Virus record (IMG/VR): IMGVR_UViG_2703718777_000025
Span: 1 to 12,890 of that record
DNA length: 12,890 nt
Direction: 5' to 3' (one strand)
Origin: a virus
Taxonomy: Duplodnaviria > Heunggongvirae > Uroviricota > Caudoviricetes
Below are positions 1-734 of the stretch, in pieces. The stretch's first letter is position 1; each line of letters begins with the position of its first letter. The notes under the pieces were generated by a model, which saw only the letters and a program-made list of their open reading frames with translations, did not search any database and was not told the origin of the DNA. The position numbers and the translations under genes were made by a program.

Positions 1-342
1 ATGATGAAAAAAAGTATTCTGGCGTTTCTGTTACTCACCAGTTCTGCAGCGGCGCTGGCTGCACCGCAGGTGATTACCGTCAGTCGTTTTGAAGTGGGTA
101 AAGACAAATGGGCGTTTAATCGCGAAGAGGTGATGCTGACTTGCCGACCGGGTAATGCTTTGTATGTTATTAATCCGAGTACCCTCGTGCAGTATCCTTT
201 AAACGATATCGCACAAAAGGAAGTTGCCAGTGGGAAGACCAATGCCCAACCCATTTCGGTGATTCAGATTGATGATCCTAACAATCCCGGCGAAAAAATG
301 AGTCTGGCACCGTTTATAGAACGAGCTGAAAAACTCTGTTAA
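1..342 (+). CDS. yebY: Small secreted protein with N-terminal signal peptide, YebY-like (host chromosomal gene)
   Basis: 113-aa ORF starting [22 protein letters not shown] (hydrophobic core plus AxA-type cleavage site), followed by a terminator. The YebY name is recalled from memory, not searched. Confidence 0.7.
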
Positions 343-500: not shown

Positions 501-603
501 GCAAGGCAACTAAGCCTGCATTAATGCCAACTTTTAGCGCACGGCTCTCTCCCAAGAGCCATTTCCCTGGACCGAATACAGGAATCGTATTCGGTCTTTT
601 TTT
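501..603 (+). ncRNA. sdsR: sdsR (RyeB) sigma-S-dependent small RNA
   Basis: Starts GCAAGGCAACTAAGCCTGCATTAATGCC, matching my recollection of SdsR. Ends with an 8-bp-stem hairpin CCGAATAC/GTATTCGG (572-594) and a T-run to 603. Possible -10 CTATTCT at 488-494. RyeA/SraC would be antisense across this. Confidence 0.7.
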
Positions 604-734
604 AATTGTATTTAAAATCAATTAGTTGCAAACGTCTCCCCGAAATTCCCCGAAATTTACTCGAATTTCTGTATTCCGGTCTTTTTTGGTTATATCACAA
701 CCAAAATACATTTAACAATCCATTTACGTAAAAA
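604..734. other. Candidate attL junction region
   Basis: Lies between the sdsR terminator and the int stop codon. Contains an 11-bp tandem direct repeat (T)CCCCGAAATT x2 at 637-658 and a degenerate second copy of the sdsR 3' end, GTATTCCGGTCTTTTTT at 671-687 versus GTATTCGGTCTTTTTTT at 587-603. The exact core cannot be set without attR. Confidence 0.4.

Follow-up and report, generated by a model that had tools for sequence, protein, structure and literature searches.

A probable attachment-site junction of a lambda-like prophage in the terminator hairpin of the small RNA gene sdsR, with a candidate phage-borne promoter for the antisense RNA RyeA

The stretch of DNA analyzed here, 12,890 nt of the IMG/VR virus record IMGVR_UViG_2703718777_000025 (Caudoviricetes; hereafter the window), begins with the host gene yebY and the gene for the small RNA (sRNA) SdsR, also known as RyeB, which is overlapped on the opposite strand by the gene for SraC/RyeA, and continues into the gene for a phage integrase (Int; Table 1). 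SdsR is a conserved, sigma-S-dependent regulator with reported targets including ompD, tolC, and mutS and has been described as toxic if unchecked; RyeA is its antisense antagonist. The comparisons described below indicate that the region from 578 to 734 is very probably an attL site, in which a host arm, the core, and the phage P' arm adjoin, and that the corresponding lambda-like prophage, about 42 kb in length, resides in the terminator hairpin of sdsR and arrived there by the steps set out below.

A preliminary description, made from the sequence of the window alone, had placed a prophage at the 3' end of SdsR, with 131 bp between the SdsR terminator and the 3' end of the integrase gene. 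Both statements were borne out. The segment 501–603, which had been read as sdsR, matches the SdsR family of Rfam at 504–603, the similarity to host genomes ends at about position 604, and the gap between the end of SdsR at 603 and the stop codon of the integrase open reading frame (ORF; 735–1811) is indeed 131 bp long (604–734). The SdsR terminator (569–603) consists of a perfect 10-bp stem, a 7-nt loop, and a subsequent T-run, and its hairpin (569–597) has a folding energy of −15.8 kcal/mol (z = −4.2). On the opposite strand, RyeA should extend beyond the part matched by Rfam to a terminator at about 372–380, as judged by homology to K-12, for which the mapped RyeA 3' ends (+261 to +270; PMC6610125) were placed on the window via the K-12-type locus L001.

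Table 1. Features of the host–prophage junction and the adjoining genes in the window.
Feature	Position	Strand	Sequence or basis
yebY, host gene upstream of the sRNA locus	1..342	+	ORF; YebY family annotation in matching E. coli records
SraC/RyeA, Rfam-matched part	607-463	-	RF00101, 179.1 bits (gathering score 37), positions 1-145
SdsR (RyeB), full length	504..603	+	Rfam RF00111, 118.1 bits (gathering score 38), model positions 1-100 (cmscan)
Dyad, SdsR terminator stem and 7-nt loop	570..596		GACCGAATAC / AGGAATC / GTATTCGGTC; perfect 10-bp inverted repeat
att core, 27 bp	578..604		ACAGGAATCGT[A/G]TTCGGTCT[T/C]TTTTTA; common to attL, attR, attB, and attP; two polymorphic positions
Phage DNA between host end (~604) and integrase gene	605-734		
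IHF-like site	616..628	+	AATCAATTAGTTG; exact WATCAANNNNTTR match, between core and arm repeats
Putative arm-type repeats P'1, P'2, P'3	637..667	+	TCCCCGAAAT, TCCCCGAAAT, TTACTCGAAT
Second copy of the sRNA 3' end	671..687	+	GTATTCCGGTCTTTTTT; conserved P'-arm element resembling a C' half-site plus T-run
Extended −10-like element, candidate ryeA promoter	689..699	-	TGTGATATAAC; 10/11 match to TRTGnTATAAT, directed toward sdsR
Lambda-type tyrosine integrase, 358 aa	735..1811	-	Pfam PF00589, PF22022, PF09003; PHROG 7244 integrase
Excisionase, 95 aa	1777..2064	-	PF07825 (Exc), E = 6.5e-14; annotated excisionase in CD45

The junction was located with a 421-bp query that was searched against 5426 complete E. 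coli genomes. All 5426 genomes matched, and in most of them the match to the host sequence ended at window position ~604; in 228 genomes, it ran on past this position into the downstream phage arm. When the 131-bp downstream segment was used alone, exactly 228 genomes and no others were found. Thus, about 4% of the complete E. coli genomes harbor the prophage, among them many Shiga-toxin strains of the serogroups O26, O111, and O103, and the same P' arm is present in Shigella flexneri. The uninterrupted K-12-type spacer between sdsR and pphA was found in 5191 genomes, and none of these prophage-free sites contains the phage arm, nor the tandem repeat or the second copy of the sRNA 3' end that had been noted in it.

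The attachment core was defined by a four-way comparison of attL (the window), attR (CD45, L003), attB (K-12 type, L001), and attP (GenBank PP818812.1, L004). The alignment with the uninterrupted site and with the other prophage end, which the preliminary description had proposed, yielded a core of 27 bp (578–604) with two polymorphic positions, at which attL has the phage alleles A590 and T599 and attR has the host alleles G and C. The same allele pattern was observed in about 12 attL and 9 attR copies in IMG/VR: the attL copies always have an A at core position 12 and, in all but one case, a T at position 21, and the attR copies always have the host alleles. The base to the left of ACAGG also changes between host and phage. 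Because the flanking alleles switch on both sides, strand exchange is confined to the 11 bp ACAGGAATCGT (578–588), which are identical in attB, attP, attL, and attR and include the terminator loop AGGAATC. This interval lies 16–26 nt from the 3' end of SdsR, with the phage alleles downstream of it in attL, as expected of ryeB-targeting integration. Because the crossover lies within it, the phage supplies the last ~14–24 nt of SdsR in the lysogen, and the earlier suspicion that SdsR might have acquired a phage-derived piece of its terminator was therefore correct for the 3' half of the terminator. The true duplicate of the core that arises by integration is attR, which lies outside the window.

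In CD45, the prophage extends over about 42 kb from the sdsR side to just before pphA, with attR at L003:22488 and the order P arm, ACAGGAATCGTGTTCGGTCTCTTTTTA, host at its right end. The GenBank entry PP818812.1 contains the uninterrupted attP of a free phage, in the order P arm, ACAGGAATCGTATTCGGTCTTTTTTTA, P' arm, int. Its P' arm is 97% identical to that of the window over the matched int/attP stretch, and the tandem repeat and the second copy are unchanged. This phage (vB_Apl-pPE4) was deposited as an Actinobacillus phage, with Actinobacillus pleuropneumoniae as the host, an assignment that looks odd for an attP aimed at an enterobacterial sRNA gene.

The integrase belongs to the lambda type. 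It contains the domains PF00589 (61.3 bits) and PF22022 (41.3 bits) and, at residues 3–58, the N-terminal arm-binding domain PF09003 (Arm-DNA-bind_1; 29.6 bits, cut-off 22), and it matches the lambda Int structures 5j0n and 1z1b at residues 8–353 (E = 2.2e-72) and the lambda Int N-domain structure 1kjk (E = 3e-4). As in lambda-type elements, an excisionase gene adjoins int and the core is repeated at both ends of the prophage. The pattern 10 + 7 + 10 at 570–596 fits, at the level of the sequence, two core-type sites in inverted orientation that flank an overlap of about 7 bp. Most likely, the two 10-bp arms of the terminator stem serve as core-type Int sites, and the loop (580–586, AGGAATC) serves as the 7-bp overlap. 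In the proposed mechanism, site-specific recombination mediated by Int would place the prophage into the sdsR terminator hairpin, with the stem arms acting as the inverted core-type sites. As attP brings along a version of the final ~27 bp of sdsR, integration would rebuild a complete SdsR, with a 3' stem half and a U-tract that derive from the phage and contain two substitutions. Between SdsR and int, the 131 bp would represent a standard lambda-type P' arm comprising an IHF (integration host factor)-like site, three arm-type repeats, a C'-like second copy of the core end, and an extended −10-like element.

To compare this arm with those of related phages, viral contigs were scanned for the DNA pattern of the core, which yielded about 120 loci with flanks that fall into about 41 clusters. 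About 23 of these clusters are lambda-like P' arms leading into integrases that are 50–76% identical to the window integrase. This DNA-pattern scan was far more informative than a search with the single Int protein as the query, which retrieved only two close loci. The lambda-like arms share a common order of elements: the core, an IHF-like site, three tandem repeats of 10–11 bp, the second copy, and the motif TRTGnTAT. A strict IHF consensus is present at the same offset (38) in 7 of the 23 lambda-like arm types, including that of the window, and is partially conserved in the remaining ones, TCA...TT being invariant in the alignment A1; an inverted near-copy of this site occurs in the P arm of the free phage. 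The tandem repeat of the window consists of 2.1 identical units of TCCCCGAAAT at 637–657 (100% identity). It had been described as an 11-bp repeat present twice; the repeat itself was confirmed, but the measured period is 10, and a third, degenerate unit, TTACTCGAAT, follows at about 657–667, which becomes evident only by comparison with related phages. Related arms almost without exception have three repeats in this place (two in L054), the sequence of which varies with the Int lineage (CCCCGAAAT, GTCCGAAAAT, CCTCGAAAT, CACGAAAT). The P arm of the free phage contains CCCGAAAT and ACTCGAA in the same orientation as in P'.

Because the integrase has the arm-binding domain of lambda Int, the tandem repeats fit arm-type Int sites, as had been suggested, and their conserved placement is consistent with this assignment; the repeats at 637–667 are thus putative arm-type Int sites, and the element at 616–628 is a putative IHF site. 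The support for these arm elements comes from their constant positions across many related attP arms, as the counts within the window are weak on their own: the IHF consensus has two matches versus 0.8 expected, which is near chance, and YCYCGAAWT has three matches versus 1.28 expected. A third group of arms at the same core (L048, L049, L066, and L070, all from IMG/VR) begins with TTTTTTTGGTTGG and contains one or two IHF-like sites and CCTGTT-type repeats, which suggests that an unrelated integrase lineage converged on the sdsR core.

The second copy of the sRNA 3' end, GTATTCCGGTCTTTTTT at 671–687, matches GTATTCGGTCTTTTTTT at 587–603 with one inserted C, and a match of a 16-mer at an edit distance of at most 1 did not occur in any of 20,000 shuffles of the 130-bp arm. 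The second copy had been taken for a duplication of the sRNA 3' end at the junction. It is real, but it was not created by the insertion because it is present in the attP of the free phage, to which it belongs. The tandem repeat is likewise present in this attP, and neither element occurs at the 5191 uninterrupted sites, so that a derivation of either one from the insertion event or from host sequence was rejected. The core of the element, TATTCGGTCT (TATTC(C)GGTCT), is present with at most two edits in 18 of the 23 lambda-like arm types, at an offset of 94–95 from the start of the core (84 in one case). It is perfect (10/10) in three arm types (L011, L032, and L088), and in L088, the second copy repeats 16 nt of the core without a mismatch.

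The second copy might be a functionless fossil of an older att core that was left by nested or tandem integrations and inherited from a single attP. The site is used repeatedly, with two cores at L020 and with L012 and L024 on one contig, even the "empty" host site contains a decayed phage arm (see below), and a single ancestor may underlie all arm types. Nevertheless, we regard this origin as somewhat unlikely. The offset of 94–95 and the identity of up to 10/10 in TATTCGGTCT have persisted in arms with divergent neighboring spacers and arm repeats and with integrases of only 50–70% identity, and this retention suggests that the second copy is under constraint. The second copy could instead be an additional, C'-like core-type Int site in the P' arm that aids the assembly of the intasome, a tentative possibility suggested by the sequence and placement of the element. 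It is similar to the C' half-site, on which the fixed host target leaves no room for drift, and keeps this similarity although the arm-type repeats vary from one Int lineage to another. It comes immediately after the third arm repeat, and a constant 84 bp, or about eight helical turns, separate it from the real C' site. However, 5 of the 23 arm types have no recognizable copy, and a conserved T-run is unexpected in a core-type site. We know of no C'-like site of this kind in lambda attP.

The same T-run, at the end of the second copy, could point to a backup intrinsic terminator that halts read-through from SdsR before it enters int in the antisense direction, and SdsR read-through has been documented in K-12 (PMC6610125). 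This function is highly improbable. The region 630–692 folds with a minimum free energy of −8.5 kcal/mol (z = −0.45), which is equaled by 58 of 200 shuffles, and a terminator scan detected only the SdsR terminator. As the T-run is not preceded by a significant hairpin, the second copy was rejected as an intrinsic terminator.

Integration at this site also affects RyeA. In K-12, RyeA starts about 37 nt beyond the 3' end of SdsR (PMC6610125, mapped on L001), from a promoter with the mutationally defined −10 element TATGGT (PMC6610125). This native promoter and the first ~50 nt of RyeA lie to the right of the crossover and are thus found at attR next to pphA, about 42 kb away and facing the P arm of the prophage, and the remaining ~220 nt of ryeA are now downstream of the phage P' arm. 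The expectation that the insertion may separate RyeA from its promoter or replace its 5' end therefore proved right. RyeA is, however, probably not left promoterless, as an element corresponding to the extended −10 of ryeA is present in the phage arm. Apart from the core, GTTATA(T/C)CACA is the part of the P' arm that is best conserved in the alignment A1; on the minus strand, it reads TGTG(A/G)TATAAC, and TGTGATATAAC is invariant across 13 arm types. Most arm types have the motif TRTGnTAT at an offset of 107–111 (one arm type at 100), and host arms have it at 71–100; the motif coincides with the −10 element of K-12 ryeA, at a similar position, and is present in all other host flanks but one. 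Therefore, the element at 689–699 probably serves the lysogen as its ryeA promoter; its distance from the core exceeds that in K-12 by 40 bp, and the predicted start is at about 680–684. As the final steps of the proposed mechanism, the native ryeA promoter would be carried to attR, and RyeA would be transcribed from the phage element, resulting in a RyeA about 40 nt longer than in K-12 with a phage-derived 5' end. The predicted shift of 40 bp compares well with independent observations of Froehlich et al., who reported that the SraC of Shigella and Salmonella exceeds that of E. coli by ~35 nt and that its −10 box is located ~35 bp further upstream (PMC3333887), and S. flexneri has this P' arm.

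Alternatively, RyeA in the lysogen might be transcribed from a more proximal promoter-like site (−35 at 632–627 and −10 at 610–605, minus strand) or by read-through from int, rather than from 689–699. A consensus promoter scan flagged TTTGCA-16-TACAAT on the minus strand, int (735–1811) and ryeA lie on the same strand, and no intrinsic terminator is predicted on the minus strand from int to the core. This alternative is unlikely, as a single promoter-like match equals the chance expectation of 1.0 and the TTTGCA/TACAAT pair is not conserved across the arm types. Moreover, a start at about 598 would result in a RyeA about 45 nt shorter than in K-12, yet Shigella, in which this arm occurs, has a longer SraC.

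Several points nevertheless weigh against the interpretation of the junction favored here, including the promoter at 689–699. The Shigella strain studied in PMC3333887 may lack this P' arm; the proposed −10 element, TATAAC, lacks the conserved final T; and the consensus scan missed 689–699 and flagged only the TTTGCA-16-TACAAT pair (632–605), at the chance count. In addition, lysogeny of the phage PhiW104 is reported to lower ryeA expression in Salmonella (summarized in PMC7380047), so that a phage-borne ryeA promoter may be weak. Finally, the idea that the phage supplies a better SdsR terminator is only partly supported: the lysogen has an uninterrupted U-tract (UUUUUUU, versus CUUUUU in K-12). 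The U-tract alone differs, as the stem energy is identical (−15.8 kcal/mol) in the K-12 and lysogen terminators, and a more stable phage-supplied stem was therefore not supported.

The 5' end of the Rfam SraC_RyeA consensus (AAUUAAAAAAAGACCGAAUAC) agrees with the phage-type junction of the window (607–578, minus strand) and not with the K-12 sequence (CAGAUAAAAAGAGACCGAACAC). Because this consensus end is phage-type, part of the RF00101 seed probably derives from attL junctions of lysogens.

The comparison of arms also bears on the origin of the K-12 ryeA promoter. In the family I arms (25 loci in the largest cluster), int ends with ...EYVMV-stop, and the codons GTT ATG GTT include the hexamer TATGGT. 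The spacers downstream of sdsR in K-12-type and other hosts align over ~65–75 bp with the 3' end of family I int (AACCATA..GTCCAG..TTTTT..TTGTTAA; alignment A2). The aligned int stretch comprises the last ~22 codons (L001:1800-1880, L017, L029, and L099), and the mutationally defined −10 element of ryeA coincides with the final Val-Met-Val codons of those integrases. For 5 of the 7 host spacers, the BLAST score was above that of every shuffle, including the spacers of E. coli (L001; 40.1 bits, 73% over 64 nt, best shuffle 26.5 bits), L017 (48.2 bits, 77% over 61 nt, best shuffle 31.0 bits), and L099 (63.5 bits, 81% over 73 nt, best shuffle 28.3 bits); the other two were within the range of the shuffles. 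Further downstream, pphA matches a PHROG of NinI-like phage phosphatases (E = 7e-88), and yebW matches another PHROG. These similarities make the "prophage-free" site look like an ancient attL whose prophage has decayed, and the native ryeA promoter like leftover integrase codons. A second copy of the core, which would mark the far limit of such a putative remnant, was not found downstream of pphA in K-12 when up to three mismatches were allowed. Within the window, the block 689–734 of the P' arm was considered as a fossil of a further int C-terminus (...ILVVI*) and was dropped because the similarity was too weak.

We consider the chances about even that the ryeA/sraC promoter is in general a phage part. 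Under this scenario, phages that target sdsR carry a conserved, outward-directed extended −10 element at the end of the P' arm or of int, the K-12 promoter is an integrase fossil (Val-Met-Val-stop) in a decayed prophage that left behind pphA and yebW, and RyeA is both phage-born and phage-renewed. Every lysogen would then be newly equipped with a ryeA promoter and with one half of the SdsR terminator, and it would be explained why the sraC promoters vary widely between species despite the conservation of sdsR.

Integration into ryeB has been described previously. PhiW104 of Salmonella DT104 integrates in the last 23 bp of ryeB and alters ryeA's sequence as well as its expression (Balbontin 2008 via PMC7380047; cited in PMC3603311). 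In Yersinia, a prophage that adjoins yebY has a 27-bp att site (PMC12653942), and "RyeB" already serves as a target label in island catalogues (PMC10111431). The prophage of the window is the E. coli/Shigella case of this integration, with standard lambda-type anatomy. It shares with the Salmonella elements (summarized in PMC7380047) a target inside ryeA, namely the last ~23 bp of ryeB, as well as the rebuilt end of ryeB and the altered 5' part of ryeA. The same source also describes the ryeB site as repeatedly used by horizontally acquired DNA. Unlike PhiW104, the prophage of the window is an E. coli/Shigella element and has a Rac-like early region (RalR/RalA, RecET, KilR), and unlike the many elements at the Salmonella site, essentially a single attP/int type is present in the complete E. 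coli genomes (228 genomes). Thus, the view that the locus is a known attachment site was correct in light of PhiW104. Use of the site as a hot spot by many different elements was not seen in the 5426 complete E. coli genomes, which show one attP type plus a few insertion sequence (IS) insertions. Diversity of arms at the sdsR core was seen only across the IMG/VR contigs that share the core, taken regardless of host taxon.

The similarity to lambda comprises an Int that is homologous over its full length, including the arm-binding domain, the location of int and xis beside the P' arm, and the order of the core, an IHF-like site, and three tandem arm repeats; the P arm of the phage also contains arm-type motifs and an IHF-like site. 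In contrast, the core and arm sequences are unrelated, and the phage inserts into the terminator hairpin of an sRNA gene, whereas lambda uses the attB in the gal-bio intergenic region. Moreover, P'3 is followed in the phage arm by an additional C'-like element and by a promoter-like element that faces outward; to our knowledge, lambda is not known to have either. A second relevant comparison is integration at the 3' ends of tRNA and tmRNA genes, in which the core similarly overlaps the 3' end of a structured RNA gene and has dyad symmetry and a 7-nt loop (Williams 2002 via PMC3603311). In both settings, the target RNA gene stays intact because the phage carries a replacement 3' end. The sdsR/ryeA locus differs from tRNA and tmRNA genes in being transcribed on both strands, and therefore the phage must replace not only the 3' end of SdsR but also the promoter and the 5' end of RyeA. 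Our literature search, which did not cover the text of Balbontin 2008, retrieved nothing on the conserved second copy, a phage-borne ryeA-type promoter, or an integrase origin of the K-12 ryeA promoter.

A further consequence of integration concerns pphA, which in K-12 is transcribed mainly via read-through from the sdsR promoter (PMC6610125). The prophage places about 42 kb between pphA and this promoter, which would uncouple pphA from sdsR in the lysogen. Carrier strains thus have a part-phage SdsR terminator, would use a different RyeA 5' end and promoter, and would have lost the coupling of pphA to sdsR, and the levels of SdsR, RyeA, and pphA may be affected. Because the end of SdsR, the promoter of RyeA, and the linkage of pphA differ, results obtained with K-12 may not be transferable to these strains. 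The comparative data clearly outline the anatomy shared by an entire clade of integrases that target sdsR and suggest that the promoter of an antisense sRNA originated from a remnant of an integrase gene.

Two further configurations were observed in the complete E. coli genomes. Five of the 228 genomes, for example, NZ_CP074951.1, contain two copies of the 131-bp P' arm, which could reflect tandem lysogens or a secondary attachment site. In E. coli 17MR471 (L127, NZ_CP051158.1 3566089-3567063), ISApl1 directly follows the sdsR core, that is, it is located at the boundary also used by the phage, and parts sdsR from the ryeA promoter and pphA with no prophage involved.

The remainder of the window is a Rac-like early region that encodes RalR/RalA, RecT, RecE, a repressor-like helix-turn-helix protein, YdaT, and a replication ATPase. 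RalR/RalA is a type I toxin-antitoxin pair known from the Rac prophage. In the window, the RalA antitoxin sRNA (RF02694, 219 bits) adjoins the ralR toxin gene (2169–2347 on the plus strand and 2346–2540 on the minus strand). The prophage joins this Rac-like early region (RecET, KilR, YdaT) to a different integrase and attachment site.

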